This document shows positions 8,457-55,924 of a stretch of 64,000 bases of DNA, piece after piece. A program made the translations under genes and the position numbers. Source of the DNA: a bacterium (GTDB lineage Bacteria; Patescibacteriota; Minisyncoccia; 1-14-0-10-42-19); NCBI GenBank assembly GCA_030690215.1, contig JAUYHD010000029.1, positions 14,568 to 78,567 on the forward strand. Reading direction: 5' to 3'. Within the stretch, counting starts at the first letter, position 1, and every line of letters starts with the position of its first letter. The notes beneath the pieces are model-generated. The model saw only the letters and a list, made by a program, of their open reading frames with translations. It did no database searches and was not told where the DNA came from.

Positions 8457-8536
8457 TTTTTCTTGCCCCGAGCGTAGTCGAGGGGGTCTATTTTTTTAGG
8501 GTTATATCGCTGCATTTCCTTAGAATAGCGTATTTT

Positions 8537-8575
8537 TTTTACTTACTCAATAAAAAAACCGCATATACATGCGGT
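8537..8575 (-). terminator. rho-independent terminator downstream of 8585..8968
   Basis: accgcatatacatgcggt hairpin flanked by A/T runs. Confidence 0.55.
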
Positions 8576-8584
8576 TTATAAAAA

Positions 8585-8968
8585 CTACGGCGGCGAGGGC
8601 CAGGAATAATCGCTAAACCTTACCGGAAACATTGGCCTCATTAATAAAATATCGGGCCTACTAAAAACAATGCTTTTAGTTTGAACGGGTAAGGGAACAT
8701 ATATCCCTTCTTTCTGTACGACGGTAAATGGGAAGCCGGTCTTCTGCGTATCCAATTGAAGATGCGCGTCTAAAAATTTCTGATGAAATACACCTTTTTC
8801 AAAACTATCCAATCTTATTTGAAGATCTATTTTTGTAGGATCGTCTATCTTCCGATATGCTTTGAAGCGAACCTCCATCTCATTTGCCGGCATAATAAAA
8901 GAACTATATGCATAAAATAAAAACAAGCCTACCAACACCCCACCAATAAAGGGCAAGGACTTTTTCAT
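8585..8968 (-). CDS. hypothetical N-terminally membrane-anchored protein
   Basis: GGAGG RBS; single N-terminal TM; last gene of the VirD4-like operon. Confidence 0.45.
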   Translation of the reverse strand: MKKSLPFIGGVLVGLFLFYAYSSFIMPANEMEVRFKAYRKIDDPTKIDLQIRLDSFEKGVFHQKFLDAHLQLDTQKTGFPFTVVQKEGIYVPLPVQTKSIVFSRPDILLMRPMFPVRFSDYSWPSPP

Positions 8969-13187: not shown

Positions 13188-14828
13188 ATGCGAAAAATAC
13201 ATATTGTATTGCTTCTCCTCATCCTCGGGATTGCCGTTTTCCTGCGCGTATTCAATCTCCAAGACATACCGCCCGGCGTCTATCCGGATGTCGCGATGAA
13301 CGGCAACAACGCGCTCTACACGCTTGATACGGGAACTCCGGAGGTATTTTATCCCGAAAACAACGGCAGAGAGGGTCTTTTTATCGTTCTATTGGCGTGG
13401 CTCATGTCCATATTCGGCCAAGATATATGGGTACTGCGGTTGCCGTCCGCATTATTCGGAATTTTGACCGTGTTTGGGACATATCTTCTTACCAAGGAGC
13501 TTTTCCGCGAAACCCATAAGGACAAAGCTGAGGTTATAGCGCTACTTGCGGCTTTTTTTATAGCAACATCATTCTGGCATATTAATTTTTCACGAATAGG
13601 ATTTCGGGCGATTATGGCTCCGTTCTTCCTCACATTCGGATTTTATTTTCTTTGGCTGACGCTTCGGAAAGATATTTCCGCTACCAAAAGAATTCTTGCC
13701 GCAACGTTGGGCGGGGTTTTCTTTGGGGGAGGATTTTATTCTTATATTGCATACCGAGTAATGCCCCTTTTGCTTATTATACCGGCCGTACGCATGTGGC
13801 AGATACAGGGATTTAAAAATATAGGTAAAAAAGGATGTATATGGTGTTCCTTTGCGCTTTTCCTCTTTTTCTCATTCGTTGCGGTGGTGCCGCTTGGAAT
13901 GTATTTCTTAGAACATCCGGCTGATTTTTTGGGACGCACCGCGCAAATTTCTGTCTTTGATACCCCATCCCCCCTCAAAACCCTCACAACAAATACGATC
14001 CAGACGCTCGGAATGTTCTGGTTTTCGGGAGATACAAATTGGCGACATAACTTTTCGGGAGCGCCTCAACTTTGGTTTCCTGTCGGAATATTATTCGCGC
14101 TCGGCATCCTAGTGCACGTCTCATCTCTCCGCAAAAAAAAATATTGGCATACATCGCTCTTCCTTTTGGGGTGGATTGCGCTTGGATTGCTGCCGGTCAT
14201 TTTTTCAAACGAGGGGATCCCGCATGCGCTTCGCGCGCTTCTTGTAATCCCGCCTGTCATGATTCTTGCCGCGCATGCATTCTCGTCAATTATCCATGGG
14301 ACGGCGGACTGGCTTGCCACAAAAGAACACTACGCCCCGCAATCAAAAAAACAGCTTAAAAGAATCCAAAAAGAACTACTCGTACTGCTTTTTGTCTTTC
14401 TTGTTGCGGGAGCATCACAAGCATATAACCAATATTTTATCCGTTGGGCATACCACCCCGAAACATACAATGCCTCAAGCGGTAATTATACGGGGCTCGG
14501 CATCTGGCTTGCGCAACAACCGAATGAGATAAAAAAATACATTATTATCAATGCCGGTGGAACGCCCGTACACATTCCCGGAAGCACAGAATCCATTCCT
14601 ATGCCCTCCCAAACGATTATGTTCCTCACTGACAGCTGGAGCGCCGATAAACAAAAAGAGAAAAATATTGTATATCTTCTCCCCGAAAAAATAGAATTGC
14701 TTACCTGCAGCGATCACTGCATTGTCGCAATGCTTGAACGCGATGAAATGCTTCGCTTTCGTATCCGCGAACATATCCCTGAACTTCATCTGTCCCCGGA
14801 GACCGGCTACCTTATTCTCCAAAAATAA
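13188..14828 (+). CDS. GT-C fold glycosyltransferase (ArnT/PMT family, GT39/83-like)
   Basis: MRKIHIVLLLLILGIAVFLRVFNLQDIPPGVYPDVAMNGNNA N-terminus and polytopic topology typical of ArnT/PMT; ORF track start 12945 likely an upstream extension. Confidence 0.75.
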   Translation: MRKIHIVLLLLILGIAVFLRVFNLQDIPPGVYPDVAMNGNNALYTLDTGTPEVFYPENNGREGLFIVLLAWLMSIFGQDIWVLRLPSALFGILTVFGTYLLTKELFRETHKDKAEVIALLAAFFIATSFWHINFSRIGFRAIMAPFFLTFGFYFLWLTLRKDISATKRILAATLGGVFFGGGFYSYIAYRVMPLLLIIPAVRMWQIQGFKNIGKKGCIWCSFALFLFFSFVAVVPLGMYFLEHPADFLGRTAQISVFDTPSPLKTLTTNTIQTLGMFWFSGDTNWRHNFSGAPQLWFPVGILFALGILVHVSSLRKKKYWHTSLFLLGWIALGLLPVIFSNEGIPHALRALLVIPPVMILAAHAFSSIIHGTADWLATKEHYAPQSKKQLKRIQKELLVLLFVFLVAGASQAYNQYFIRWAYHPETYNASSGNYTGLGIWLAQQPNEIKKYIIINAGGTPVHIPGSTESIPMPSQTIMFLTDSWSADKQKEKNIVYLLPEKIELLTCSDHCIVAMLERDEMLRFRIREHIPELHLSPETGYLILQK

Positions 14829-14830
14829 AT

Positions 14831-16681
14831 ATGGTACATAAACGCCCCGCAAACACTATAGCTCTTATCTTGCTTGCGCTATTCTTCGTTCTCATGCTTT
14901 TTTCGGCACTTCCGGAATCGGCAATCATGGACGAACTCGCCCACATCCCTGCATCCTACTCGTATGTAGCGAAACAGGATTATCGTCTCAACCCCGAACA
15001 TCCTCCGCTTGCAAAAGATCTTGCGGGCATCCCGCTTCTTTTTCTCAACCTTAATTTTCCAATCGATGTCTCCGCGTGGACTACCGATATAAACGGACAA
15101 TGGACAATGGGGTCTATCTTTTTATATGAGGCAGAAAATAATCCTGACTCTATTCTTTTTTGGGCGCGTTTCCCGCTCATGCTTTTAGCGCTTCTTTTCG
15201 GGTGGCTTTTGTATCGCTGGGCATCAGGCGCGTATGGGGGAAAGGTCGGGCTTCTTTCGTTATTCTTTTTTACGACATCGCCAACTATTATCGCGCATGC
15301 GCGCTATGTGACAACCGATCTTGCGGCGGCCTTTGCGTTCTTTATAGGGCTCGCCTCTTTTTTTACCTATCTTCTCTCTCCCTCCAAAAAAACGCTTGCT
15401 CTTGCGGGTATCGCATTCGGTATTGCGCAACTTCTTAAATTTTCGCTTATTCTTCTCATACCCATATATGTTGTCTTGGGAACACTATGGGTGTTCTTGT
15501 TCCATCTTGATCATATGCGCGCATTGCCCTCCTTCTCAAAACGACTTTTTCATTTTCTACACCACGAAATAAAACTCATTGGCAATCTTGTTCTCATTGG
15601 TCTCATCGGCGTAATCATCATATATGCTGTATACGCATTCCATGTTTGGAATTATCCCGAAGACATGCAAATTCGAGACATGACATATAACTTAGAAACC
15701 GTGCGCTTCCAGCCTATCGCGGAGACCCTCATCACTCTCTCCGACTTCCCCGTGCTTCGCCCGCTTACGCAATACGCGCACGGTCTTTTAATGGTTATTA
15801 ACCGAGGCACACACGGAAACACTACATACTTTTTAGGAGAGGTTACCAATAACGGGTGGTTCCATTATTTCCCAACAGCATATCTTCTTAAAGAACAGCT
15901 TGCTCTACACATACTTACGCTTTTAGCCATCATTCTTTTTCTTACAGCAATCGTCAGAAGTCATGAAAAAACAATCTTCTCTCTTCTTGAGTGGATGCGG
16001 GACAATTTCGTGATCACCGGCAGCATATTTTTTATTGTTGTATATTGGGCTAGCTCTGTCGCAAGCCCGCTTAACATAGGGGTGCGCCATGTTTTACCTA
16101 CATTCCCGTTTATTTTTCTCATCATATCCCGTGAAATTATCCGCTGGACGCATCACGTCACGTTTACCGATCCCCGAACGCTTAAAGAATGGCTCATCTC
16201 TCTCTACGAACTTGCGATAAAGCGCATCCCTAAATTCATTTTTATTGCAGCCACACTTGTCTGGATGGGGATTACGACACTTCTTGCGTTCCCCCATTAT
16301 CTTCCTTACTACAATGTACTTGGCGGCGGGACAGAGCATGGTTATCAATATATTACCGATTCAAATTATGATTGGGGGCAAGATTTAAAACGCCTCAAAA
16401 CATTTGTTGACGAAAATAGTATTGAGCATATCCGGCTTAATTACTTCGGCGGCGGATCGCCCCGCTATTATTTGGGGAATACATACGAAGAATGGTATTC
16501 GGCGAAAGGAGAGCCTGAAGAAGGATGGTTTGCGGTATCCGCAACGCTCCGGCAAGGATCGTGGGGAACGCCCATCCGCGGATGGGAAACAAAACCCGAA
16601 GACAGCTATAGCTGGCTTCGCGATAAAGAACCGGTCGCGCGTGCGGGGTATTCAATATTTATCTATAATCTTGCCCCGTAG
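14831..16681 (+). CDS. GT-C fold glycosyltransferase (phospholipid carrier-dependent, PMT_2-like)
   Basis: polytopic; ALPESAIMDELAHIPASYSY / HPPLAKDLAGIPL loop motifs typical of GT-C mannosyltransferase-like enzymes. Confidence 0.7.
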   Translation: MVHKRPANTIALILLALFFVLMLFSALPESAIMDELAHIPASYSYVAKQDYRLNPEHPPLAKDLAGIPLLFLNLNFPIDVSAWTTDINGQWTMGSIFLYEAENNPDSILFWARFPLMLLALLFGWLLYRWASGAYGGKVGLLSLFFFTTSPTIIAHARYVTTDLAAAFAFFIGLASFFTYLLSPSKKTLALAGIAFGIAQLLKFSLILLIPIYVVLGTLWVFLFHLDHMRALPSFSKRLFHFLHHEIKLIGNLVLIGLIGVIIIYAVYAFHVWNYPEDMQIRDMTYNLETVRFQPIAETLITLSDFPVLRPLTQYAHGLLMVINRGTHGNTTYFLGEVTNNGWFHYFPTAYLLKEQLALHILTLLAIILFLTAIVRSHEKTIFSLLEWMRDNFVITGSIFFIVVYWASSVASPLNIGVRHVLPTFPFIFLIISREIIRWTHHVTFTDPRTLKEWLISLYELAIKRIPKFIFIAATLVWMGITTLLAFPHYLPYYNVLGGGTEHGYQYITDSNYDWGQDLKRLKTFVDENSIEHIRLNYFGGGSPRYYLGNTYEEWYSAKGEPEEGWFAVSATLRQGSWGTPIRGWETKPEDSYSWLRDKEPVARAGYSIFIYNLAP

Positions 16682-16872
16682 AGCAATATCGCATAATAAG
16701 CTATGCGTTCGCCGCTGGAGGTCAAAAACTATCCCATGTTCTTACTTTTTTGCAAATGGTATTTTGTATAAGAGCTTATAAGAACACGCTATGCGATATT
16801 GTCTTACGGGGTTTGACAAAAACTAAGAAAAGACATACCCTATAAAAAGAATGTTCCTAAAAGGAGTCAATA

Positions 16873-17061
16873 ATGAATATATCTGGCTTTTTCCTGGTCG
16901 GGATCCAATGGTTTGCTATTCTACTCACTGCAGCACTAATTTTGTTTGGTGTCGCCATACGTCTTTTCCCGCACCTTCGTTATAAAAAATGGGTGCACAG
17001 CGTCATTGAGTGTATCGGCAATACAGAGATTCCGGAAAAATATAAAACGTACAAAAAGTAA
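16873..17061 (+). CDS. small hydrophobic peptide P1 (62 aa, 1 TM + basic tail)
   Basis: AAGGAG RBS 7 nt upstream of ATG. Confidence 0.4.
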   Translation: MNISGFFLVGIQWFAILLTAALILFGVAIRLFPHLRYKKWVHSVIECIGNTEIPEKYKTYKK

Positions 17062-17107
17062 CGCAGTTCCTATAATGACCAGAAACCAAAAAGGAGGTTC
17101 TTTAACA

Positions 17108-17311
17108 ATGGCGCATATTTTTATATTTTTATCCGGTCTTAGTTTTGGATGCTTTGTTACAGTAATGAAAATTAACTTAATAATTGATTCTTCACTCAAT
17201 GAATTGGGTATGCTACTTTTTGCGGGTGTCGGAGTTATGGCATTACTGTTTGGTATTCAGGGAATTAACAAAGATAAAAGAAACCCTAAGCCCCCAAAAA
17301 CGGAAAAATAA
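17108..17311 (+). CDS. small hydrophobic peptide P2 (67 aa, 2 TM + basic tail)
   Basis: AAAAGGAGGTT RBS; internal start of ORF 16946..17311. Confidence 0.4.
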   Translation: MAHIFIFLSGLSFGCFVTVMKINLIIDSSLNELGMLLFAGVGVMALLFGIQGINKDKRNPKPPKTEK

Positions 17312-17421
17312 GATATAAAATCTGTGCCTATTTTTACTTCTATTCGATATCGTCTAATAGAGTTCGACGAAGAATAAATAAATTACTATGATGTAAAAAA
17401 TAAAAAGGAGGTTTTCCAAAA

Positions 17422-17544
17422 ATGGTAGCATTTCTAGATACATTTATGCCCTGGGTGGCCGTTATTGCCGGCATTATTCTAATTTTTATGTTCAGTCTCC
17501 CTATTCTTGCCAAGCTCTTTCCGAAACTTCTCCGAAGAAGATGA
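17422..17544 (+). CDS. small hydrophobic peptide P3 (40 aa, 1 TM + KLLRRR tail)
   Basis: AAAAGGAGGTT RBS nearly identical to P2's; below ORF-track length cutoff. Confidence 0.35.
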   Translation: MVAFLDTFMPWVAVIAGIILIFMFSLPILAKLFPKLLRRR

Positions 17545-17630
17545 TTCTACTCGCTTTTTAAATCCATCGTTGTCGGCATAGGAAACCGCGAAATCTCAGA
17601 AGAAGAAAAGACGAAAAAATAAGATACAAA

Positions 17631-17660
17631 AACCCCCTAACAACAGGGGTTTTTATTTTT
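17631..17660 (+). terminator. rho-independent terminator after P1-P3
   Basis: aacccccTaacaacaGggggtt + tttttattttt. Confidence 0.7.
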
Positions 17661-17669
17661 CTTTCCCTT

Positions 17670-17699
17670 CTGGATACGCTCAACCTGGATACGCTCAAC
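17670..17699. repeat. 15-bp perfect tandem direct repeat ctggatacgctcaac x2
   Basis: 17670-17684 and 17685-17699. Confidence 0.8.
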
Positions 17700-17716
17700 T
17701 CTTAAATACCCCCAAC

Positions 17717-17756
17717 AAATCAACGAAGAACTACGATCGTTGTTCTTTGTTGATTT
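17717..17756. promoter_or_regulatory. 40-bp near-perfect palindrome (operator-like), core AGAACTACGATCGTTGTTCT
   Basis: 36/40 self-complementary; second copy of core at 18503-18522. Confidence 0.6.
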
Positions 17757-17903
17757 ATGATTCTTCCCGCTCTTACTAAGAATCACACCTCTCTCCCCAA
17801 GGAACGACGGTACAAGGCCGGGGGTTTCATTGCCACAGATAGAAACAAAAATATGGGATACGGTCTTGAAAAACTTGAGACTGAAAGACTTGCTTTTAGT
17901 GTC

Positions 17904-18482
17904 TCATCCAAGCTTAAAATATTTCTTAAGATGAAATTCATTATCAAGCGAATCGGCAATAATAAAACGGGTGTAGGGACGTGCATAAAAAAATTCAATT
18001 ACAAAATCAACTTCATCCTGACATTCAAATGGATGTACAAATACACTTTTTTGATATTCAAAAAATCCGGCTCGTATCAATGCGCGCCGCAAGGCGTCCC
18101 GAATCACACGTGATTTCTCAGGTATATCAAATAACACTATGCGCCACTTCCCATCCCATTTTTCCATGGGAGCAACACGGATGGCATCAATTTTATATCT
18201 GAGCGCTTTTTCTTCCCCCTTTTGCGTAAGCACGAGAGTATATGTTCCGTCTTTATTACGTACCGTTTTGATTAGCCGAGAATTATAAAGACTTTTAATG
18301 GCGCGATGAAGAGCTTTTTGATCAACTTCCTTCCACCAATGAGCAACACCCCTTACAATGTTAAAATATTTTTTTGGGTTATGATTCAAGCCCAACAACG
18401 CTCCTCCTAAAAGCAAAATAAGAACTTTTTGCGAATTTGGCCCAAGATTAAAACCTCGTTTTGTTTTTTTGCGATATTCCAT
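17904..18482 (-). CDS. winged-HTH + Cas2/VapD-fold (PaaX-like architecture) putative transcriptional regulator
   Basis: C-terminal KWRIVLFDIPEKSRVIRDALRRALIRAGFFEYQKSVFV matches Cas2/PaaX_C pattern; N-terminal wHTH-like; ORF track uses GTG at 18500, first ATG at 18482. Confidence 0.5.
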   Translation of the reverse strand: MEYRKKTKRGFNLGPNSQKVLILLLGGALLGLNHNPKKYFNIVRGVAHWWKEVDQKALHRAIKSLYNSRLIKTVRNKDGTYTLVLTQKGEEKALRYKIDAIRVAPMEKWDGKWRIVLFDIPEKSRVIRDALRRALIRAGFFEYQKSVFVHPFECQDEVDFVIEFFYARPYTRFIIADSLDNEFHLKKYFKLG

Positions 18483-18502
18483 AATTAAATAGAAATACAC
18501 GA

Positions 18503-18522
18503 AGAACTACGATCGTTGTTCT
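18503..18522. promoter_or_regulatory. 20-bp palindromic operator AGAACTACGATCGTTGTTCT between regulator start and divergent promoters
   Basis: 18/20 self-complementary; identical to 17727-17746. Confidence 0.6.
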
Positions 18523-18548
18523 ATGTGGATTTTGCTCATTATATCATT

Positions 18549-18557
18549 TTATTGCTA
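18549..18557 (-). promoter_or_regulatory. extended -10 (TGaTATAAT) for the regulator gene
   Basis: reverse complement of ctcattatatca; operator lies between it and the start codon. Confidence 0.45.
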
Positions 18558-18578
18558 TTTAACTGTACGGGGGCGGGG

Positions 18579-18607
18579 TTGACAAAGAATAAATATTTTG
18601 ATATAAT
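18579..18607 (+). promoter_or_regulatory. consensus sigma70-type promoter TTGACA-N17-TGnTATAAT driving P4
   Basis: TTGACA 18579-18584, TG 18599-18600, TATAAT 18602-18607; GAGGAGG RBS 18624-18630. Confidence 0.75.
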
Positions 18608-18638
18608 GTAGAAAACTAACAAAGAGGAGGAGTCTTAA

Positions 18639-18794
18639 ATGCGGCTTGCTTATATGTTTTTTGCGGGTTTGGGCACTGGAACAATAGCTACGCTTTTATT
18701 CGCACCAGAACATGCCTATGGCATCGGGCCCGGTATCATTATTAGCGGGACAGTTGTTCTTTATGTTCTTTATCGGGGTATCACTAGAAAATAA
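18639..18794 (+). CDS. small hydrophobic peptide P4 (51 aa, 2 TM)
   Basis: perfect promoter + strong RBS; below ORF-track cutoff. Confidence 0.45.
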   Translation: MRLAYMFFAGLGTGTIATLLFAPEHAYGIGPGIIISGTVVLYVLYRGITRK

Positions 18795-18904
18795 TAGAAG
18801 GGGCTTGCTTATTACTAAGCGGGCCTCTTTTTATTTTTAGCAAAAATCCCTCAAGTTAAATTTTTAGGATGAAATTACTTACATGCTGATATATAATACA
18901 ATCA

Positions 18905-19867
18905 ATGGCAAAAATCGTTGTTGGAGTACTGCGCGGAGGCCCTTCCTCTGAATATGACATTTCGCTCAAAACTGGCGAAAATGTTTTGCGTCATCTTCCC
19001 CAAGAAAAATACAAACCCTTGGATATTTTTATTTCAAAAGCAGGCGAATGGCACTTAAAAGGCCTTGTCCGCCCGCCCGAAAAAATACTACAGCATATTG
19101 ATGTCGCCTTTAACGCTATGCACGGTGAATATGGAGAAGATGGAACAGTACAAAAAATTTTCCGTGATCACGGGATCCCCCACACAGGATCGGAGGTTAT
19201 GGCATCCCGCTTTACCATAAAAAAAGATACAGCAAAAAATCTACTGGAACGCGCGGGATTAAATGTACTCCCAGGAATAACCGTGCGACCCGATGACGAT
19301 ACACAAACGACACTCACGCTCGTGCATAAAAAAATGGCGCCTCCGTGGGTAGTTAAACCGAACGGAAAAGGATCGTCCGTGGGAGTTTCGATAGTAAGGA
19401 CTTTGCCGAATTTGGAAAAAGCAATCTCTGAAGTATTCCGCATTGACTCCTTAGTACTCGTAGAAAAATATATAAAAGGCAGGGAGGCAACATGCGGTGT
19501 CCTTGAAAATTTCCGGAATGAAAAATATTATGCGCTTCCGGTTGTGGAGATAATCCCGCCACAAGGAAAGTTTTTTGACTATCAGTCAAAATATGACGGC
19601 TCAACCAAAGAGGTTTGCCCCGGAAGATTCAGCAAACGCGAAGCAACACACCTCCAGGACGCAGCAATACGTGCGCATAAAGCGCTTGGATGCAGGCATT
19701 ATTCTCGAACCGATATGATTCTTGCAAACGATACGGTATGGGTTCTTGAAACAAACACCCTCCCGGGGCTTACTTCAGAATCTCTACTCCCTAAATCCGC
19801 AGAAGCGATAGGGCTTTCTTTCCCGGGCTTATTAGACCACTTGGTCGCTCTCGCACTTAAGAAATAA
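18905..19867 (+). CDS. ddl: D-alanine--D-alanine ligase
   Basis: ATP-grasp Ddl N-terminus MAKIVVGVLRGGPSSEYDISL and C-terminal motifs. Confidence 0.9.
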   Translation: MAKIVVGVLRGGPSSEYDISLKTGENVLRHLPQEKYKPLDIFISKAGEWHLKGLVRPPEKILQHIDVAFNAMHGEYGEDGTVQKIFRDHGIPHTGSEVMASRFTIKKDTAKNLLERAGLNVLPGITVRPDDDTQTTLTLVHKKMAPPWVVKPNGKGSSVGVSIVRTLPNLEKAISEVFRIDSLVLVEKYIKGREATCGVLENFRNEKYYALPVVEIIPPQGKFFDYQSKYDGSTKEVCPGRFSKREATHLQDAAIRAHKALGCRHYSRTDMILANDTVWVLETNTLPGLTSESLLPKSAEAIGLSFPGLLDHLVALALKK

Positions 19868-21128
19868 TAGCGCCCCCAAGCACCTGCCTGCCGGCAGGCA
19901 GGTTTCCCTCCTCCATTGAATAGAAAACTATTGATTGGCCGGGTGTTACTGCGCGTTGCGGATCTTTAAATTGAATTAAGAATTTTGAATTAGGAATTAA
20001 GGTTTCTTCCGTTATTCTTGATTCATAATTCATAATTCGTGCTACTTGTAGCGGTTGGCGATATCGTATTCGCACCTCACATTCTAAAGGCAATTCCGGA
20101 ACAACTCCGGATATCCAATGCGCGTCGCGAACGCGCAATTCCGTTTTAAATAATGCCTCTTCATATGGACCTTCGGCAACCGTAATCGTATTGATCGAAA
20201 CATCTTTATCGGTTACATAATATGGGATGCCCCCACCCACCCCTATGCCGTGACGCTGGCCGATGGTGTAAAATTCTGCCCCTTCATGCGTGCCTATTTC
20301 TTTTCCGCCGGTAGTCAGAATTTTCCCGGAACGCTTCGGCAATACTTCCTGCATAAAAGAACGGAAATCGATATTACCAACAAAACAAAGTCCCTGGGAA
20401 TCTTTTTTTGCATGTGTCGGAAGTCCAAACTTTTTTGCCATAGCGCGGACCTCTCTTTTTTCATATCCCCCAATCGGAAATAATGCGTGCTTCAATTGGT
20501 CTTGCGTTAGCGTCCATAAAAAATAACTTTGATCTTTGTTTATATCTCTCGCAACATGTAGCATATAGCGTGCGGCAGATTTCTCATTTTGAGTTTTGAA
20601 CTTTGCGCTTTGAGCTTTCCTTACATAATGTCCAGTTGCAATATAGTCTGCCCCCAAACTACGCGCCTTATTTAAAAAAACTCCGAATTTAATTTCTTTG
20701 TTGCACATGACATCTGGATTTGGCGTAAGCCCCGCTTTATATTCACGCACCATATAATCAAACACTGATGCGCGGTATTCTTTTTCGAGATCAAATACAT
20801 AAAATGGAATATGCAATTTTTCTGCGACTCGTCGGGCATCCTCCGCGTCTTGTGCGGATGTACAATACGCCCCCTCTGACCAGCACTTCATATAGGCGCC
20901 GATTACTTCGTATTCCCCACTTTGAACCAACAAAGCAGCCGCAACGGACGAATCAACCCCGCCGGACATCGCTACGAAGACCTTTTTACCCCGAGTAGTA
21001 TTGAGGGGCTTGCCCCGAGTGCTATCGGGGGGCTTGCCCCGAGCCCCGCCAGAAGCGGGATCGAGGGGCTTGCCCCGAGCCCCGCCAGAAGCGGGATCGA
21101 GGGGTTTGTTGTTTTGATTAATTGACAT
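19857..21128 (-). CDS. mnmA: tRNA-specific 2-thiouridylase MnmA with Pro/Gly-rich repeat N-terminal extension
   Basis: PP-loop KVFVAMSGGVDSSVAA, catalytic Cys regions; N-terminal ~47 aa encoded by tandem repeats. Confidence 0.88.
   Translation of the reverse strand: MSINQNNKPLDPASGGARGKPLDPASGGARGKPPDSTRGKPLNTTRGKKVFVAMSGGVDSSVAAALLVQSGEYEVIGAYMKCWSEGAYCTSAQDAEDARRVAEKLHIPFYVFDLEKEYRASVFDYMVREYKAGLTPNPDVMCNKEIKFGVFLNKARSLGADYIATGHYVRKAQSAKFKTQNEKSAARYMLHVARDINKDQSYFLWTLTQDQLKHALFPIGGYEKREVRAMAKKFGLPTHAKKDSQGLCFVGNIDFRSFMQEVLPKRSGKILTTGGKEIGTHEGAEFYTIGQRHGIGVGGGIPYYVTDKDVSINTITVAEGPYEEALFKTELRVRDAHWISGVVPELPLECEVRIRYRQPLQVARIMNYESRITEETLIPNSKFLIQFKDPQRAVTPGQSIVFYSMEEGNLPAGRQVLGGAIIS
20990..21112. 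repeat. GC-rich tandem repeat, 36-bp unit x2 full plus partial copies, in-frame in mnmA 5' end
   Basis: gccccgccagaagcgggatcgaggggcttgccccga at 21041-21076 and 21077-21112; partial copies 21001-21040. Confidence 0.85.
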
Positions 21129-21417
21129 CGTAGTGTATCTATGATAAAAAAAATATAGAAAAAATTCAAGGAGATACGCAATTGCTACTACTTATAACGG
21201 GAATGTTTAGCGGGTATTTCTCAATTGGGATACTCATCGTTATCGGAATAAGACTCGCTACAAAAAAAGACCGCGAAAAAATACCGGTTGAAACTAAGAG
21301 AAAACTTTATCAAAAATGGTTCTTCTTGTGGGGCGTACTCGCTGTTCTTTGGCTTCTTGGTCAATTTGGACAATTTGGGAGATTCTCCCGATAAACCAAT
21401 AAGGACGCGATGCGTCC

Positions 21418-22332
21418 TTATTTTATTTTTTGCTGGAGCTCACGGATATGTTCGGACGCAATCCCGAATCCTATGCCTACCTGCGAAACATCCCCGACCA
21501 ATTTTACCGTTTCATTATATAAATCAACATTAAACTTTACCGGATCAATACCGCCAATTGCAAAACCGGAAGAATATCCCGCCGGAAGTGTTATTAATTT
21601 TTCAACCGGAATATCCGTCTGGCGCGAACTCACCATCCCAATAACACGCCCCGTAATAGCGGAAAAAATAGGCCCCCCGCTATTCCCTTTATTTACGAAT
21701 GCATTAATGCTTAACTGGCGAACGCCTCCGCTTTCGTCTTTTGCAGAAATAACCCCCCTATGTATTAAAATGCGCGAAAGCCCCCTATTGAACGCCGCAA
21801 TCCCGATTTCTTCCCCTATTTCAATATTTTCAAAATACCCCAAAGAAACCGCGGGAAAATTTTTTCCATCTACACCAACGAGGGCGGTGTCTGAAACGCT
21901 GTCTTTTGCAAGCACGCGTGCTTCCAAGACGCGTCCATCAACTGTCTGGACATCAAAGGAACCCCCAACAGCGTCGGCAACATGCGCGGCTGTCGCAATA
22001 ATACCTCGCGAATCAATAAAAAATCCCGATCCCTTTACTTCCCCTTCGTCCACAATCATCACGGTCGCCCTCTTTACCGTTTCGGCATATAAAGAAAAAT
22101 CTTCCGCTTCAATAAAGCCCGATTCCTTCAAAGAAACAATTTGGCGCTCCTTTTCGTCCAACGCCTTGTCCAGTAGTAAGAAACGCTCCTCAAATGAATC
22201 CGAAAGGGCTGTAAGCATCGATTCGGTCTTGCGCGCGCTTTGACCACTTTGATATGCAATAATTATTACGACACCCGCAAGAAAAAAAATTGCTAGAGGT
22301 ATCGCATGTCTTTTTAAAAAATTCATATACAT
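21418..22332 (-). CDS. trypsin-like (S1C/HtrA-like) serine protease, membrane anchored
   Basis: GSGFFIDSRGIIATAAHV (His), NKGNSGGPIF (Ser) motifs; N-terminal TM. Confidence 0.8.
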   Translation of the reverse strand: MYMNFLKRHAIPLAIFFLAGVVIIIAYQSGQSARKTESMLTALSDSFEERFLLLDKALDEKERQIVSLKESGFIEAEDFSLYAETVKRATVMIVDEGEVKGSGFFIDSRGIIATAAHVADAVGGSFDVQTVDGRVLEARVLAKDSVSDTALVGVDGKNFPAVSLGYFENIEIGEEIGIAAFNRGLSRILIHRGVISAKDESGGVRQLSINAFVNKGNSGGPIFSAITGRVIGMVSSRQTDIPVEKLITLPAGYSSGFAIGGIDPVKFNVDLYNETVKLVGDVSQVGIGFGIASEHIRELQQKIK

Positions 22333-23465
22333 TATTTAAGATATCGCGTCTTGTTCTCTTTGTGCTCTTCAAATGTTTTTGCGTAATGCGCCTGTCCCTC
22401 CGCGTCATGCAAATAGTACCAATAATCGCTCTCTTCGGGGAAAATGGCAGCTTCAATCGCCTCTAACCCGGGGTTTGAAATGGGTGTTGGAGGAAGACCT
22501 AGTCGCTTGTACACATTATACGGGGAATCAATATTCAGATCGTCTATGCTTAACTCAAAAGAACCCCTTCCCGTCACATATGAAAGTACCGCGTCAACCT
22601 GAAGCGGATAATCCTGTTCAAGCCGCTTCCATAAAATACCCGAGATAATCCGACCGTCATCCCCATCAAATGCTTCGCGCTCAATAATAGAGGCCATAAT
22701 GAGCACGTCATAAAAATCCTTCCCTTGATTTTTAATCGCCTCCCGCAATTCGGAAGTAATTTTTCGGTCAAAATTTTCAAGCATCGCATGCACTACTCCT
22801 TGTGGTGACACTCCGGGTGGGAAAAAATATGTATCAGGAAATAAAAATCCCTCAAGACCTTCGCCTGCCGGCTTTGCCTCTAATAGATCTGTTTTTATGC
22901 TGTAGTCATTTGCGAGCGGCAGATATTCTCCGTTATTTCCATAATGAAGCGAATGAAGACCGGCTGCGCGCCAAAAATCTTCTGCGCTAAAAAATCCCCG
23001 CTCTTCAAAAAAAAGACCCATCCCATACACGGTCGCCCCTTCCGCAATAGTCGCCCGAAACGGAGTTACTTCGTAATTTCCGTCGGTAAGGCGGTACATA
23101 ATGTCAATTAAAGAAAGCGGCTGCTCAAAATAATAAAGTCCCGCTTTGATATCCCGCTCATATCCGAATGCCATTACCAATACGGAAAAAAGAAGGGGCG
23201 ATCTGATAACATTATGCGAACGCAGAGATGCCGCTATTTCACGCAAGCCCCTTCCCTCTTCTATTTCAAAAATCTTGTCGCTCGGAAAATCGTATGGGGG
23301 AAGAAAAAGCATGATTGCGGTGAAAACAAGCCACAAAAAAAACGCCATGCCGGCAATCCAAAACACGCGTTTATGACGGATGCGTTCATATATCAGATAG
23401 CCCTTTTTTGTCTTATCTATACTATCCATTACGCCATTGTAACATCTCTTATGTTCATACGACAC
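22332..23465 (-). CDS. mltG: endolytic murein transglycosylase MltG (YceG family)
   Basis: N-terminal TM, YceG-like domain incl. LPPTPISNPG motif. Confidence 0.8.
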   Translation of the reverse strand: MSYEHKRCYNGVMDSIDKTKKGYLIYERIRHKRVFWIAGMAFFLWLVFTAIMLFLPPYDFPSDKIFEIEEGRGLREIAASLRSHNVIRSPLLFSVLVMAFGYERDIKAGLYYFEQPLSLIDIMYRLTDGNYEVTPFRATIAEGATVYGMGLFFEERGFFSAEDFWRAAGLHSLHYGNNGEYLPLANDYSIKTDLLEAKPAGEGLEGFLFPDTYFFPPGVSPQGVVHAMLENFDRKITSELREAIKNQGKDFYDVLIMASIIEREAFDGDDGRIISGILWKRLEQDYPLQVDAVLSYVTGRGSFELSIDDLNIDSPYNVYKRLGLPPTPISNPGLEAIEAAIFPEESDYWYYLHDAEGQAHYAKTFEEHKENKTRYLK

Positions 23466-23480
23466 GCACCCGCATAAATG

Positions 23481-23640
23481 AATAACCGCACCGCAAACAG
23501 TGCGGTATTCGCGCTGATTGCGGTCTTGCGGTTATTCCACCCAGCACATAAGTTTAAACAACGTCATTTTTTAACCGGCTTTTGTTCGATGGATACTGCA
23601 TTCATACAGCGACGTGCTATTAAACTTATGTGCTGGGTTT
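23481..23640. repeat. structured repeat element: outer 10-bp IR (aataaccgca/tgcggttatt) + 18-bp perfect-stem hairpin cccagcacataagtttaa...ttaaacttatgtgctggg
   Basis: homologous, in opposite orientation, to 45155-45280. Confidence 0.7.
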
Positions 23641-23664
23641 ATTATCTGCATACCGCATCCACCT

Positions 23665-23732
23665 CGTTAGAAATTTCCTCAATAAAAAAACAACATAAAA
23701 CGCGTAATTTTCTTATACGGTAATTTCTAACG
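23665..23732. repeat. 11-bp perfect inverted repeat cgttagaaatt / aatttctaacg enclosing 46 bp
   Basis: member of CGTTAG...CTAACG(GG) hairpin family. Confidence 0.6.
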
Positions 23733-23776
23733 GGGTTCACCCTCGCAAGAGACGACCCAGCTTCGCCAAAGCTTTT

Positions 23777-23804
23777 CCGCCCAAGGCGGATCCGCCTTTG
23801 GCGG
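23777..23804. repeat. GC-rich palindromic element ccgcccaaggcggatccgcctttggcgg
   Basis: 27/28 identical to 6703-6730 inside leuS. Confidence 0.8.
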
Positions 23805-23845
23805 AAGCGAGGTAAGGGCTCACCATGGGTGGTTGCGGGCAGATA

Positions 23846-23880
23846 ATAAAATGCCCGTTCCGCATTTTGCGGAACGGGCG
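23846..23880 (-). terminator. rho-independent terminator for 23888..26461 gene
   Basis: perfect 11-bp stem gcccgttccgc/gcggaacgggc, U-rich tail on minus strand. Confidence 0.7.
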
Positions 23881-23887
23881 TAGAGTA

Positions 23888-26461
23888 TTATTTTTCTTCA
23901 ATCGGAAGACATCCAAGAGTAGTTTCAACATACATATTTATGTACGTGACATTTGAAATATCGTCTTCAAGACGCTGTTTCCCGTGGCCGTAAAACCCTG
24001 ACTCTATTTCTATAATACGGCCTTCTTTAGAAAGAATACGCGCAAACGCAACCCCAAAATCAGTTACTTTTGATTTGCTGTCTTCAAATGGCGTATGGGT
24101 GCAAATCGTAGGGCATTGCAATGAAAGCCGCTGTCCCAACTCCACCTCATAATGCTGGACAGATGTCGCCTGATGCCAATTTGCAGGAACAACAACATGG
24201 GCTTTTCTATATTTCGCAAGAGCGCGTTCAGAAGGAATACTGATAGTTTCGGTTCGCGCTGTCCCCGGATGTGTTGATTTGAAATTCAAACCGGATATGG
24301 GGCTCGTATAATGAATTTTCTGCGAAAGATTGTCTTTTATTATCTTAGAGCTGACAACCTTATGAAGCCCCGCGAAATTATACCCAAGCTTTTCAATACA
24401 CGAAGCAATTTCTCGCACAAGATATGCTTTCAGCGAATGCGTGAATTCAGACAAAGGAGATGTGCCTTCTCTTTTCTTCCAGTCATCATGGTTCCCAGAA
24501 ACATACAAAAATGTAACCAGGGCGGAAAGAATCGCTTGTCTGAGAGCCTCGGGAGAATGGTCCGGAGCTTTCGCATGCCACTCTTCAAATCGCGCGCGAA
24601 ATACCTCCATAACAACCTTGCCAACTATATGCGATGCTATCTTTTCTTGCTGGCTATCATTTGCTCCTGCTAAAATCTCTCCCCGCGCGAGTAACCCATG
24701 CTGCATTCCCTGGGTAAAATCACCGGAACCTACTAATAGGTTAGCATTGCGCCGCAAAATAAGAGCTGGCACTTCATGCACAAAAAATTCTCCGTCGCTA
24801 TAGACCGCACCCCCGTGCAAACAACCAAATCCGACAATGCTATCTTCTTTGAAATTGCTTTCGTCTTTAAACGGATACTCCACTTTTTTCTGAAGCACAT
24901 ACGGCGCAAAATCATATTCATCAGAATGTTCATCATGAACGATTTTGAACTTTGATTGCTTCATGTTCTCAATTTCTTTTCTTATCTCTTCGCGAGTCGC
25001 TTTATTCCCCATGCTATGGAGATGATATTCAATCATCCCGAGACGCTGTGGTCCCTTTTTAACCTGTTCAAAAATAAGCGCGCCTAATTCCGAAAGATCT
25101 TTTGGTGTTTTAACATGAGAACGCTCTTCCTTTACCAAATCCTTAAACGACCGATTTATGGTTGAAAACGTCCCATCAGGAAGGTACTTGAAAAAGCCTA
25201 CGCCGATCTGGTTCTCTGACGAGCGCGTTTCCATGATATTGTGAAGGGCCGGAGCAGTAACCCATGGCCGTTTTGCCTCTCCTTGAGGACGCTCAACACT
25301 TGCGGCAAAACACCCAACAAGAAAAACATCCGGCAAAATATGAGACGAACGCTTCTCTACATCCTGCAATTCGCGCTGCGGAGCTGTCGAATAATACCGT
25401 GAACGCCACGATGCCTTGCTTGGAACAACCGGCAAAATAGTTTTATCAATATATTTTACATACAAAGGATTCTGTTCTGCCGTTTTGTTATTCCAAAACA
25501 CGATATCTTCCTTGCGGATTTCAGCAAGCCGTTTTGCTATCTGCTCCCCTATCTCGCCATCATAGGCAGGACTTGTTACGATATAGAGCTTTGCGAAACT
25601 GCCGTCCGGCTTTTTAATTTGCGGGATGACATTGGCAAGTTCGCTTGCGGCATCTCCATAAAAGTCGCCCGCATCAAGGAGTTTCTCTTTTTCCCTCTCT
25701 TGCAGACTCAAGTCGCGCCAAAATTCCTGCTGCTTGAGTTCCTGCAGGCGATCTTTTAAATACAGTTTTAACTGTGCTTTAAGGGCCCGCTTATCTACAA
25801 GACCACCGACCAATATATTAAAAACGGTGTTCTTGCGTTGGAACTCCTGCATGCCCCGCTTTACAAGAGCGTCGCGATATCCGTCGCTCCCATAATCAAT
25901 ACGCGAACAATATCCGATGTAGCATGCGCCATCTTCAGCCCATCCTTTTTCAATCTCAAGAACAGAAGGATTGATTTTATTCTTTTCGTGTTTCTTTTCG
26001 CGGTCTTTCCGATATTGTTCCGCATTAACCTGGGAAGAGCCCGGATCTTTTTTTACACCCCGAACGCCAAGCTGTTTGCGAATATCGTAACGCTGTTGCG
26101 GACTTAACGACCTCAACGCCGGGAACCTCTTTACCTGCTCCTCAAAAGACAGCGAAAACGCCTCCGAAAGAGCGTCATGGTCCTCTTCTTTCGGGAAAAA
26201 CGTATAAAGCAAATTCTTTTTCCGGCCAAGATTTTCCCATGCTTTCTGCAGGGTATCTCCTTTTTTCTGCCTACGCAACCTGCTAAGAATCGCTCCAAAA
26301 GAAAAATCTTTAAGCGCCTTCTCTTTCTCAACTTCTTTCTGCAGATCTTCCTTGATAACGCAACGGCTTAAAGCGTTCCCAAGCGCGTCAACATTCGCCT
26401 TTCCTTCCTTTGTTTTCACGTCCCATGTTCTCGACATGTCTGCCTCCCTGTTGAAGTCCAA
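23888..26461 (-). CDS. large hypothetical protein (857 aa) with degenerate C-terminal calcineurin-like/Mre11-SbcD-like metallophosphoesterase motifs
   Basis: GFGCLHGG (motif I with Cys for Asp), VGSGDFTQG (II), VSGNHDD (III, GNHD as in SbcD/Mre11); N-terminal ~500 aa charged, no match recognised. Confidence 0.45.
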   Translation of the reverse strand: MDFNREADMSRTWDVKTKEGKANVDALGNALSRCVIKEDLQKEVEKEKALKDFSFGAILSRLRRQKKGDTLQKAWENLGRKKNLLYTFFPKEEDHDALSEAFSLSFEEQVKRFPALRSLSPQQRYDIRKQLGVRGVKKDPGSSQVNAEQYRKDREKKHEKNKINPSVLEIEKGWAEDGACYIGYCSRIDYGSDGYRDALVKRGMQEFQRKNTVFNILVGGLVDKRALKAQLKLYLKDRLQELKQQEFWRDLSLQEREKEKLLDAGDFYGDAASELANVIPQIKKPDGSFAKLYIVTSPAYDGEIGEQIAKRLAEIRKEDIVFWNNKTAEQNPLYVKYIDKTILPVVPSKASWRSRYYSTAPQRELQDVEKRSSHILPDVFLVGCFAASVERPQGEAKRPWVTAPALHNIMETRSSENQIGVGFFKYLPDGTFSTINRSFKDLVKEERSHVKTPKDLSELGALIFEQVKKGPQRLGMIEYHLHSMGNKATREEIRKEIENMKQSKFKIVHDEHSDEYDFAPYVLQKKVEYPFKDESNFKEDSIVGFGCLHGGAVYSDGEFFVHEVPALILRRNANLLVGSGDFTQGMQHGLLARGEILAGANDSQQEKIASHIVGKVVMEVFRARFEEWHAKAPDHSPEALRQAILSALVTFLYVSGNHDDWKKREGTSPLSEFTHSLKAYLVREIASCIEKLGYNFAGLHKVVSSKIIKDNLSQKIHYTSPISGLNFKSTHPGTARTETISIPSERALAKYRKAHVVVPANWHQATSVQHYEVELGQRLSLQCPTICTHTPFEDSKSKVTDFGVAFARILSKEGRIIEIESGFYGHGKQRLEDDISNVTYINMYVETTLGCLPIEEK

Positions 26462-26675
26462 AAGCTCAATATGATTTTTTCAAATAACTACACTTTTATT
26501 ATAACCGAACAGAGACCATTTGCAGGACAAAAATACAGTTAGACAGTAAATCAAGGAGTCCGTAAACCCCGTTAGAAGTACCGCTATCTAACCGTGCGAT
26601 ATTCTTGTATGGTATCTTTCATTTCCTATATACCGCCCATGGACTTAAAAACGCTCCACTTTTTGCGAAACGTTT

Positions 26676-27515
26676 TTAATAGCCACCAACAAATTCACGA
26701 AATCGTTTTTGCAATTCTCTTGTATGCAAGCCGACTTTCCCGTTCCCCACCATGTTGCTATTAATCTTTACAACAGGCAAAATCTCTTTATTGGTTGCGG
26801 TAAGAAACGCTTCAGACGCTTTAGGCACTTCATCTAAGCGGATATCCCGCTCTTCAATCCGAAAATCTTTTTTTGCGAGAGAGAGAACAAAATTGCGAGT
26901 AGTCCCTATTAATACATTTTTCTTCGGCGTAATGAGCCTGCTCCCCCTTACAAGAAAAAAATTACTTGTAGTCGCTTCAAGAATGTCGCCGTGGTACGTG
27001 TAGAGCATCTCTCTATACCGTTTATGCTTCTTAAAATTTCGCATCTTAAGCGCGATCATGTAATTATTTGTTTTTGCTTCAGGAATATCCCGAAGGTATT
27101 CATGCGTCAGCACCGGGATTCCTTTCGTATACAATATGTCGGGCAATGGTTCTGATTTTTCGGCAAGAATAAAAAATGTCGGTTTTTCAATAAAAAACAC
27201 GCTTGTGCTCGGTCCTCCGGTCAATACAAAACGCAAACAAGTTTCTGGAAATGCATTTTTTTCTATAAGCGCGTGTGTCGCTTTTTCGATATTCTTGCGG
27301 GAAACGGAAATCTGCAAATGGAGTTTTTTTGCGGATTCTTCAAACCGATCAAGGTGCTCTTTCATTAAAAACGGCTTACCATTATAGGTGCGTAAAAAAT
27401 CAAAAACTCCATACCCGCGAAGCACCCCCAAATCATTCAAACGAAAATCCGCATCTTTAAAAAGAACAATCTTTCCGTTAAAAAAACAGTGGCTGCCTAT
27501 CATCTTAATTTTCAT
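26676..27515 (-). CDS. class IV (fold type IV) PLP aminotransferase (BCAT / D-amino-acid aminotransferase / ADC lyase family)
   Basis: GVFDFLRTYNGKPFLMKEHLDRFEESA motif; probable start MKIKMIGSH. Confidence 0.7.
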   Translation of the reverse strand: MKIKMIGSHCFFNGKIVLFKDADFRLNDLGVLRGYGVFDFLRTYNGKPFLMKEHLDRFEESAKKLHLQISVSRKNIEKATHALIEKNAFPETCLRFVLTGGPSTSVFFIEKPTFFILAEKSEPLPDILYTKGIPVLTHEYLRDIPEAKTNNYMIALKMRNFKKHKRYREMLYTYHGDILEATTSNFFLVRGSRLITPKKNVLIGTTRNFVLSLAKKDFRIEERDIRLDEVPKASEAFLTATNKEILPVVKINSNMVGNGKVGLHTRELQKRFREFVGGY

Positions 27516-27605
27516 TATAAAAGAAAAACGGATGCAAAGATAGAAACATTGACACCAAAGCAAAAACATGTCACCATTGAAGAAACGCAAGAGGAGAGCC
27601 ATCGT

Positions 27606-36238: not shown

Positions 36239-36580
36239 CATCGAAAAACGTCTTCCTTGCCCCGTAAGACAATATCACATGGTACGTCATGCATTCGCCG
36301 TTCATTCACCATAGCATAGCTGTACTCCCCATTTCTTCTGACAGCGACGCTCTAATAAATGACGTACAAGAATGCGTTATGTGATATTGTCAAACGGGGC
36401 TTGCAAAATCGCAGAATATATTTCGATGGTTACCTTTTATTGTACTTTTACTAATAATACTTCGTATCACCTCCGTAAGACGTAAAGATTTTGCTTTTCC
36501 GCCGGAGGCGGATCTGCTCGCCTCGTCTTCGCCTCGGCGAGGCGGGCCTTCGGCATGACGATGTTGCCATACGGGGCATA
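36211..36580. repeat. 355-bp non-coding segment bracketed by 15-bp direct repeats gccatacggggcata; contains repeat-family sequences
   Basis: DR at 36211-36225 and 36566-36580; interior holds 36367-36414 (~80% to 16781-16830) and GC-rich palindrome 36488-36550. Confidence 0.5.
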
Positions 36581-54471: not shown

Positions 54472-54834
54472 CGTGATCCTGAATTCTAGCTTGTAACGCC
54501 TTTCGAGATGTTTCATTGCACTTTGGATTAGAACCTGGGTATTGAGGATTCACAATGGGCTTCCCCTCCCCCTCAAAAAAAAGAACATATGGTTCTTTCG
54601 TAAAATCAGGCAATACAGGCGTTTCTTCGCTTATTGCGATAGCTTCTTGCACGACTTGCTTTCTAATCTCGAAGGCGGACACAGCTCCCAAAATAACCAT
54701 TACCAACAATAAAATCTTATTCCAAGTAGGCATACAACCTCCTATCAATGTGCTTTTATCGTATGGTACTCTTGCTGTGCGGAAAAGGCAACTATTTGGT
54801 AAAAAACCGCATTATATCTATAATAAAAAATAGC

Positions 54835-55660: not shown

Positions 55661-55924
55661 TATAAAACCAATAAACGAAAAAATTCCGCCGTCAGCGGAA
55701 TTCTTTCAAAGCAGTACTCGTGTGGCAGTTTGTCCGCTCTTATACAAGATATATATCTTCAGCGAAAAACTCGAAAGCGTTCGCAATTTAGATATCTGAA
55801 AAAAATTATTTGATCGGAACCGCCGTTATATAAGAGTACTGCTATTTTTATTATACTCCTTTTCTATAAAAAATCAAGAGCAAAACCTTCTTTACCCACA
55901 CCTATAGTTACATCAACCTATAGC

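Follow-up and report, generated by a model that had tools for sequence, protein, structure and literature searches.

A Parcubacteria protein family with two metallophosphoesterase folds in tandem, a predicted winged-helix linker and a Cys-x-His motif I

The DNA studied here, referred to as the window, is a stretch of 64,000 nucleotides from contig JAUYHD010000029.1 of a Patescibacteriota genome (GenBank assembly GCA_030690215.1). On its minus strand lies a gene for a large protein, which we describe as a tandem of two metallophosphoesterase (MPE) folds; the N-terminal one lacks all metal ligands and the C-terminal one has an invariant, altered ligand set. The gene is bracketed by a class IV aminotransferase gene (pabC-like, 26676-27602) on one side and by the genes for MltG/YceG (22332-23465) and a trypsin-like protease (21418-22332) on the other, the last two being open reading frames (ORFs) that overlap by 1 nt. 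As an earlier note on this DNA had pointed out, the gene has a strong terminator of its own, see Table 1.

The ORF list gives the gene a TTG start. Judging from the sequence, the true start is probably the ATG at 26437, eight codons inside this ORF, which follows a Shine-Dalgarno-like element. The 849-residue version starting there is 100% identical to a protein named hypothetical protein by NCBI in the annotation of an identical metagenome-assembled genome. Residue numbers throughout refer to the 857-residue ORF counted from the TTG.

Two metallophosphoesterase folds in one protein

A model of the full protein, built with AlphaFold2 (AF2) on the family alignment, is confident, with a predicted local distance difference test (pLDDT) of 83 and a predicted template modelling score (pTM) of 0.77. 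Searched with Foldseek, it matches many solved MPEs at prob 1.00; the nearest are DP1 of the D-family polymerase PolD, the B-subunits of the polymerases Pol delta, alpha and epsilon, SbcD and Mre11, and Vps29 is also among the matches. A search of BFVD returned many phage metallophosphoesterases, some of them labelled 'polymerase II small subunit'. The beta-sandwich of the calcineurin-like MPE fold, with its flanking helices, was found for the full model as well as for the N-terminal domain alone. The phosphoesterase core that the earlier note had proposed for the C-terminal part is supported as a calcineurin-like MPE, with PolD DP1, SbcD and Mre11 as its nearest solved folds.

The note had based this core on three motifs, GFGCLHGG (residues 544-551), VGSGDFTQG (577-585) and VSGNHDD (654-660). 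Their places and canonical order are both right, and their key residues are invariant, far beyond chance, across 129 near-full-length homologues whose identity is otherwise 25-50%. In this set C547, H549, G580, D581, G585, G656, N657, H658 and H731 never vary, N761 and H763 are kept in all 128 homologues covering motif V, and H588 is 97% conserved. The motif residues each directly follow a predicted strand (538-546, 575-580, 650-655, 726-730 and 756-759), which is what this fold would lead one to expect. The arrangement resembles the standard layout of five motifs, with two fixed replacements: the Asp of motif I is a Cys, and the first His of motif V is an Asn. Motifs II, III and IV are canonical and invariant. 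The core had also been called degenerate and the GH/GHxH motifs downstream weak. Neither description fits, as all seven metal-ligand positions are fixed in the homologues, H731 and N761-x-H763 among them, and the Cys is a constant character of the family rather than a sign of decay.

At the level of Pfam, the similarity is faint. The window protein has no match to PF00149, the gathering threshold not being reached, and weak matches are seen in 12 of 29 homologous C-terminal domains (best E 3.9e-4). The C-terminal domain is also aligned by hhalign, at prob 87-95%, to the catalytic subunits of a two-gene version of the protein, described below.

The roughly 500 N-terminal residues, previously regarded as unrecognisable, can be divided at the fold level into three parts: an extension, a pseudo-MPE and a winged helix. 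The extension (residues 1-171) is all helical and modelled with low confidence (pLDDT 57-77). Such an extension of about 170 residues is found in a minority of the family. It is 37% identical to residues 4-155 of P0165, the pseudo-MPE subunit of the two-gene version, and the extensions of other members give weak Myb/helix-turn-helix (HTH) hints at most.

Residues 172-452 form an alternating beta/alpha domain, which modelled alone reaches a pLDDT of 89.7 and in Foldseek searches of the PDB finds solved metallophosphoesterases at prob 1.00 and E about 1e-5. PolD DP1, SbcD, LpxH, Mre11, SapH, Rv0805, purple acid phosphatase and polymerase B-subunits are among these matches. The strand ends that correspond to motifs I-III carry S186-R-I-D189, G219-G220-L and S297-P-A-Y-D301. 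In the family alignment, no His or Cys is conserved anywhere in this domain and the metal ligands are all missing, but a large number of Arg, Lys, Asp, Ser and Thr positions hardly vary. This combination of lost ligands and retained other residues suggests a pseudo-phosphoesterase with a conserved, different surface.

The linker (residues 453-535) is a small helix-helix-helix-strand-strand unit according to the secondary structure of the model. The sole match of the whole-family profile in the PDB is here, a weak one to small winged-helix/Z-alpha chains, and in homologues the linker gives weak matches to HTH_5/HTH_20. A counterpart winged helix-turn-helix (wHTH) is found at the N-terminus of the catalytic subunit of the two-gene version (hhalign prob 84%).

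The two halves have the same spacing. Motifs I and II are 34 residues apart in each of them, and motifs II and III are separated by 77 residues in the first half and by 76 in the second; in Dbr1, the latter spacing is 45 residues (PMC5113202). Both halves carry a two-helix insert between motifs II and III, at residues 224-278 (roughly 55 residues) and 602-647. An hhalign comparison of one half with the other is collinear over 238 columns, although not significant (E 0.025). From these sequence features, the N-terminal domain probably arose by duplication.

Table 1. Coordinates of the gene, its domains and motifs, and adjacent signals in the window.
Feature	Position	Strand	Basis
ORF, 857 codons from TTG	23888..26461	minus	ORF list
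Probable real coding sequence, 849 aa from ATG	23888-26437	minus	NCBI protein; upstream GGGAGG
Shine-Dalgarno-like GGGAGG, 5 nt before the ATG at 26437	26443-26448	minus	read from sequence
Intrinsic terminator: 12-bp stem, 9 G-C pairs, T-rich tail	23853-23879	minus	after stop codon
Variable helical N-terminal extension, residues 9-171 of the probable coding sequence	25949..26437	minus	alignment, model, match to P0165
Predicted pseudo-MPE domain (MPE fold, no metal ligands), residues 172-452	25106..25948	minus	model, Foldseek, conservation
Winged-helix-like linker domain, residues 453-535	24857..25105	minus	secondary structure, weak profile matches
Predicted catalytic MPE domain, residues 536-857	23891..24856	minus	invariant motifs, PF00149, hhalign, Foldseek
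Motif I, C547-L-H549 (Cys where canonical Asp)	24815..24823	minus	alignment; Asp opposite C547 in split form
Motif II, G580-D581 (bridging Asp)	24719..24724	minus	alignment
Motif III, G656-N657-H658	24488..24496	minus	alignment
Motif IV, H731	24269..24271	minus	alignment
Motif V, N761-W-H763 (N-x-H for H-x-H)	24173..24181	minus	alignment; N-x-H in split form too

Homologues, a two-gene version and the gene neighbourhood

The protein had been thought to be an orphan, which is refuted by 27 close relatives in the protein collections and by relatives that make up 171 clusters at 50% identity, 117 of them at E<1e-30. A typical member has 650-730 residues and starts near residue 175 of the window protein. 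All named family records are from Patescibacteria of the Parcubacteria group (Yanofsky-, Sungii-, Kaiser-, Giovannoni- and Uhrbacteria, Paceibacterota), where some bins among the third-party annotation (TPA) records bear doubtful taxon labels. The whole protein, searched as a single sequence against Pfam, NCBIfam, PADLOC, PHROGs and PDB sequences, had no significant match; PHROG matches are weak and lie around the GNHD. On the basis of these sequence comparisons, it appears to be a previously undescribed family restricted to Parcubacteria, with the core order pseudo-MPE, winged helix, active MPE. The family is apparently inherited vertically. What is new is the architecture and the active-site variant, as the metallophosphoesterase superfamily to which it belongs is already known.

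A split version of the protein, consisting of two genes in the same slot, is known from two related genomes. The first, contig L083, is collinear with the window: thiolase, PepF, DUF7282, Aminotran_4, the slot, (PCMT) MltG and trypsin-like protease follow each other, and the neighbours are 47-66% identical to their window counterparts. The slot (6001-8830) contains two genes 10 nt apart, encoding P0165 and then a 374-residue protein, P0175. P0165 consists of the extension, a wHTH and a domain that matches the profile of our N-terminal domain (hhalign prob 85%, 259 columns); by sequence search, its similarity to the window protein is confined to the extension. In P0175, a wHTH (prob 84%) precedes an MPE that aligns with the profile of our C-terminal domain (prob 87%), and the protein exceeds the Pfam Metallophos cut-off (25.9 vs 21.5 bits). 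The second case, from Niyogibacteria (L084/L085, 5533-8137), is a pair of 485 and 378 residues upstream of PCMT-MltG-MnmA, with hhalign prob 94% and 95%. A search of the large protein collection gave no split catalytic subunits beyond these two.

The split version shares with the fused one the slot (Aminotran_4 ... PCMT-MltG), the domains as seen by profile-profile comparison, and the N-x-H of motif V. It differs in being two polypeptides that each have their own N-terminal wHTH, in the D-x-Q of its motif I, and in the absence of the helical insert from the catalytic subunit. In both split catalytic subunits, an Asp is aligned opposite C547, and C547 therefore occupies the canonical metal-ligand position. 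The fused and split states argue, from sequence, that the dead and the live domain function together, and they are the strongest evidence for it.

For the neighbourhood survey, 73 homologous loci were dereplicated to 46 groups. No conserved partner gene recurs in these 46 loci, SbcC/Rad50-like genes included, and none of the latter is among the large ORFs of the window either, so that the missing SbcC/Rad50 partner of the earlier note is borne out at both levels. The large ORFs of the window encode GlmS, LeuRS, a VirD4-like ATPase, glycosyltransferases, PepF, thiolase, a P-type ATPase and HlyD. The immediate neighbours vary between loci and are housekeeping genes. Of the 34 groups whose flanks are long enough, 15 have MltG/YceG within 3 kb downstream, on the same strand as the family gene. 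ClpB is downstream in 8 groups, and DnaG-RpoD, FtsW, L10/L12, S2/Tsf, TruB and YqeY are also seen across loci. At locus L018, MltG is fused to a PCMT methyltransferase, and in one lineage defence-like genes adjoin the family gene. Seven loci share a giant ORF of about 2,545 residues without Pfam match, 0.7-1.5 kb downstream of the homologue (L008, at 13568-21204, and its relatives L001, L002, L007, L010, L011 and L017).

Comparison with known systems and possible function

The family resembles Mre11/SbcD in the calcineurin-like fold, which is among the best structural matches of both halves, and in motifs II-IV, including the general-acid His of GNHD. Two MPE-fold units would also act together in both cases, as a homodimer in Mre11/SbcD and as a tandem here. 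The differences are nevertheless large. The window family has no Rad50/SbcC partner gene, one of its units is predicted to be inactive, it has C-x-H in motif I and N-x-H in motif V, and there is an extra helical insert of 40 residues between motifs II and III. A winged helix lies between the units where Mre11/SbcD has its capping domain, and sequence similarity is not detectable (hhalign to E. coli SbcD prob 2.4%). For the full model and for the N-terminal domain alike, Foldseek ranks PolD DP1 and the polymerase B-subunits first, and this group supplies both active (DP1) and inactivated (B-subunit) forms of the fold. However, no OB (oligonucleotide/oligosaccharide-binding) fold is evident here, the segments before the MPE units being helical or winged-helix according to DSSP, and the identity is 10-14%. 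A catalytic partner of the polymerase type is not known in bacteria.

Dbr1 is set apart from virtually all other MPEs by having Cys-x-His rather than Asp-x-His in motif I, where the Cys is essential, poorly replaceable and part of a proven functional metal site (PMC5113202, PMC4176325), and it works with a pseudo-MPE homologue, Drn1 (CWF19L1) (PMC4105757). The window family shares the Cys-x-His motif I and the pairing of an active MPE with a pseudo-MPE, the latter as a functional parallel only. It differs in motif V (N-x-H, compared to H-x-H in Dbr1) and in being bacterial rather than eukaryotic; neither the lariat-recognition loop nor the C-terminal domain of Dbr1 could be recognised. Both domain profiles were compared with E. 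coli SbcD, LpxH, CpdA and ApaH and with Dbr1, the Entamoeba sequence of which was taken from a PDB alignment. A specific kinship with Dbr1 was rejected: hhalign to the Entamoeba and human proteins covers 8-39 residues at prob 1.6-5.3%, which does not surpass the alignments to SbcD, LpxH or CpdA. Given the absence of such kinship and the Asp of the split relatives, the Cys is best read as an independent acquisition, perhaps a tuning of metal preference.

The MPE of P. putida is a stand-alone Mn-dependent single-stranded DNA endonuclease without a Rad50-type ATPase, and its nuclease activity relies on the His of motif III and on a second His (PMC7826289). By this description, H658 and H588 are candidate counterparts of the two. 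That enzyme consists of one canonical domain and its gene belongs to a DNA-repair operon, whereas the window family is a tandem with a winged helix and variant ligands, outside any repair operon.

We suggest, at about even chances, that the protein is a nucleic-acid phosphodiesterase of the Mre11/SbcD/DP1 kind, independent of Rad50 and pseudo-dimeric within a single chain. The C-terminal domain would be a binuclear metallophosphoesterase with an altered ligand set, in which C547, H549, D581 and H763 bind metal one, D581, N657, H731 and N761 bind metal two, and H658 serves as the general acid in phosphodiester hydrolysis. The N-terminal domain would be a non-catalytic 'second protomer' that also offers a substrate-binding surface, and the single chain would stand in for the Mre11/SbcD dimer without the SMC-type (structural maintenance of chromosomes) ATPase Rad50/SbcC. 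Together, the pseudo-domain and the winged helix could bind DNA or RNA ends, single strands or unusual junctions, in a housekeeping role of repair or processing. The folds of the two halves, the constancy of the ligands, the distribution of the family, the missing partner gene and the split version are shown by the data, whereas we infer that the protein is catalytically competent, that its halves form a pseudo-dimer and that its substrate is a nucleic acid. Such a substrate is most likely because the closest folds and the HTH modules point to it and the P. putida enzyme sets a precedent.

Several observations weigh against this proposal. Neither the profile search of the PDB, where the C-terminal domain finds no chain at E<=10, nor hhalign provides a sequence-level link to any characterised nuclease, and the hhalign alignments to SbcD, Dbr1, LpxH, CpdA and ApaH cover short motif stretches only. 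The Foldseek E-values are modest (1e-5) and the TM-scores low (0.3-0.5). Winged helices mediate protein contacts as well. Enzymes that are not nucleases (LpxH, Rv0805, SapH, Ap4A hydrolase, 5'-nucleotidases) are also among the fold matches, several of them confident, and the recurrent synteny with MltG/PCMT could hint at an envelope-related substrate. These last points favour the main rival, which we consider unlikely, namely a phosphodiesterase or pyrophosphatase that, like LpxH, CpdA/Rv0805 or ApaH, acts on a small molecule or a lipid-linked substrate and is perhaps tied to envelope metabolism, with the N-terminal domain and the winged helix used for regulation or localisation. In addition to the recurrence of MltG, the PCMT-MltG block follows the fused and the split versions alike, and FtsW/RodA is adjacent in one lineage. 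However, the folds that best match the full-length model belong to nucleases or polymerase subunits, the family always carries one or two HTH-type domains, and the immediate neighbours differ widely between loci. In E. coli, the gene order is pabC-mltG-tmk-holB, so Aminotran_4 beside mltG is an ancient arrangement and the synteny may therefore be historical; the terminator moreover separates the gene from mltG.

The invariant Cys-x-His, a hallmark of Dbr1, raises the question of a 2'-5' phosphodiesterase for branched RNA or RNA-DNA, such as group II intron lariats or retron-like multicopy single-stranded DNA (msDNA), with a built-in Drn1-like pseudo-MPE. The other Dbr1 ligands (D, N-H, H, x-H) are matched as well, save for the one His replaced by Asn, and Dbr1 has a pseudo-MPE partner of its own in Drn1 (PMC4105757). 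We regard this as improbable: in addition to the lack of specific sequence similarity and of recognisable Dbr1 elements, the top 50 Foldseek matches of the full model do not include Dbr1, an Rfam search of the window detected no family, group II introns included, and the Asp of the split relative means that the Cys is not ancestral to the clade. It would accordingly be a long shot that Parcubacteria hold a prokaryotic counterpart of Dbr1/Drn1 debranching, in one chain or as a two-gene pair, resolving 2'-5' branched or unusual junctions. An effector nuclease in anti-phage defence, as the earlier note had considered, or of a mobile element is more doubtful still. PADLOC has no matching defence model, no relative was confirmed when viral contigs were scanned for the motif pattern, the GC content of the gene is that of its surroundings, and no defence-type neighbour recurs in the 46 loci; instead, the gene sits in a housekeeping slot (Aminotran_4 - gene - MltG) kept across genomes. 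Least credible of all is that the whole protein is an inactive scaffold. The replacement of the canonical motif I Asp and of one motif V His could be taken that way, and inactive MPE domains are known in polymerase B-subunits and Vps29, both fold matches here, and in Drn1. Pseudo-enzymes, the protein's own N-terminal domain included, lose their ligand residues, however, while here conservation is 100% at the seven ligands, at the general-acid His and at the glycines around them, and Cys-x-His is a proven metal site in Dbr1 (PMC5113202). The inactive scaffold that had been envisaged thus describes the N-terminal pseudo-MPE well, but not the C-terminal domain.

Bacteria of the candidate phyla radiation have tiny genomes and many protein families without assigned function. 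As the family is conserved, apparently vertical and strongly constrained, it likely serves a core task that other bacteria solve differently. It would constitute a second, independent MPE clade with a fixed Cys-x-His, a feature treated as unique to Dbr1, and the exchange of His for Asn in motif V bears on metal selectivity in the superfamily. It may also offer a natural case of duplication, inactivation of one copy and fusion, in which split and fused states survive in syntenic loci, and possibly a Rad50-independent, single-chain version of the Mre11 dimer.

Repeats and other features of the window

The DNA around the gene had been described as repeat-rich, and the flanking intergenic DNA does contain many inverted repeats. 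Between the terminator and the start of mltG (23470-23852, minus strand), a 383-nt intergenic stretch has a minimum free energy of -174.5 kcal/mol, compared to -106 +/- 6 kcal/mol for its shuffles (z = -11.4). It contains inverted-repeat arms of 31 and 29 nt and a terminator-like hairpin of its own at 23506-23485, and Rfam has no matching family. The stretch could represent a palindromic element, the leader of mltG or a structured RNA.

A 16-nt inverted repeat, GTRAACCCCGTTAGAA, is found on both sides of the gene (23725-23740 and 26562-26577), and its 13-nt core AACCCCGTTAGAA occurs at only these two places in the window, where 0.12 would be expected. A mobile element was considered and rejected, as the similarity ends at about 27 nt, which was judged too short.

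The palindromic unit TCCGCC-NNN-GGCGGA occurs 6 times, compared to 0.22 expected, at window positions 6702-6731, 23776-23805, 36498-36512 and 55685-55699. A tandem pair of it lies in frame within the leuS ORF, encoding ...REKLSAKGGSASGGKIKN..., and the same 32-nt double palindrome recurs in other Parcubacteria contigs (L028 4817-4848, L065 724-755, L018 ~6983-7003, L040 ~15725-15765), reminiscent of in-frame palindromic elements.

Elsewhere on the minus strand of the window, a 680-residue ORF at 52474-54516 has no Pfam match, and the 808-residue ORF at 10338-12764 is the VirD4/TrwB-like coupling ATPase. The 5' end of mnmA (19857..21128, minus) has tandem repeats of 36 nt (2.4 copies, 95% match) and 24 nt in its coding region; these repeats, at 21024-21108 and 20989-21043, yield the repeated N-terminal peptide PLDPASGGARGK.

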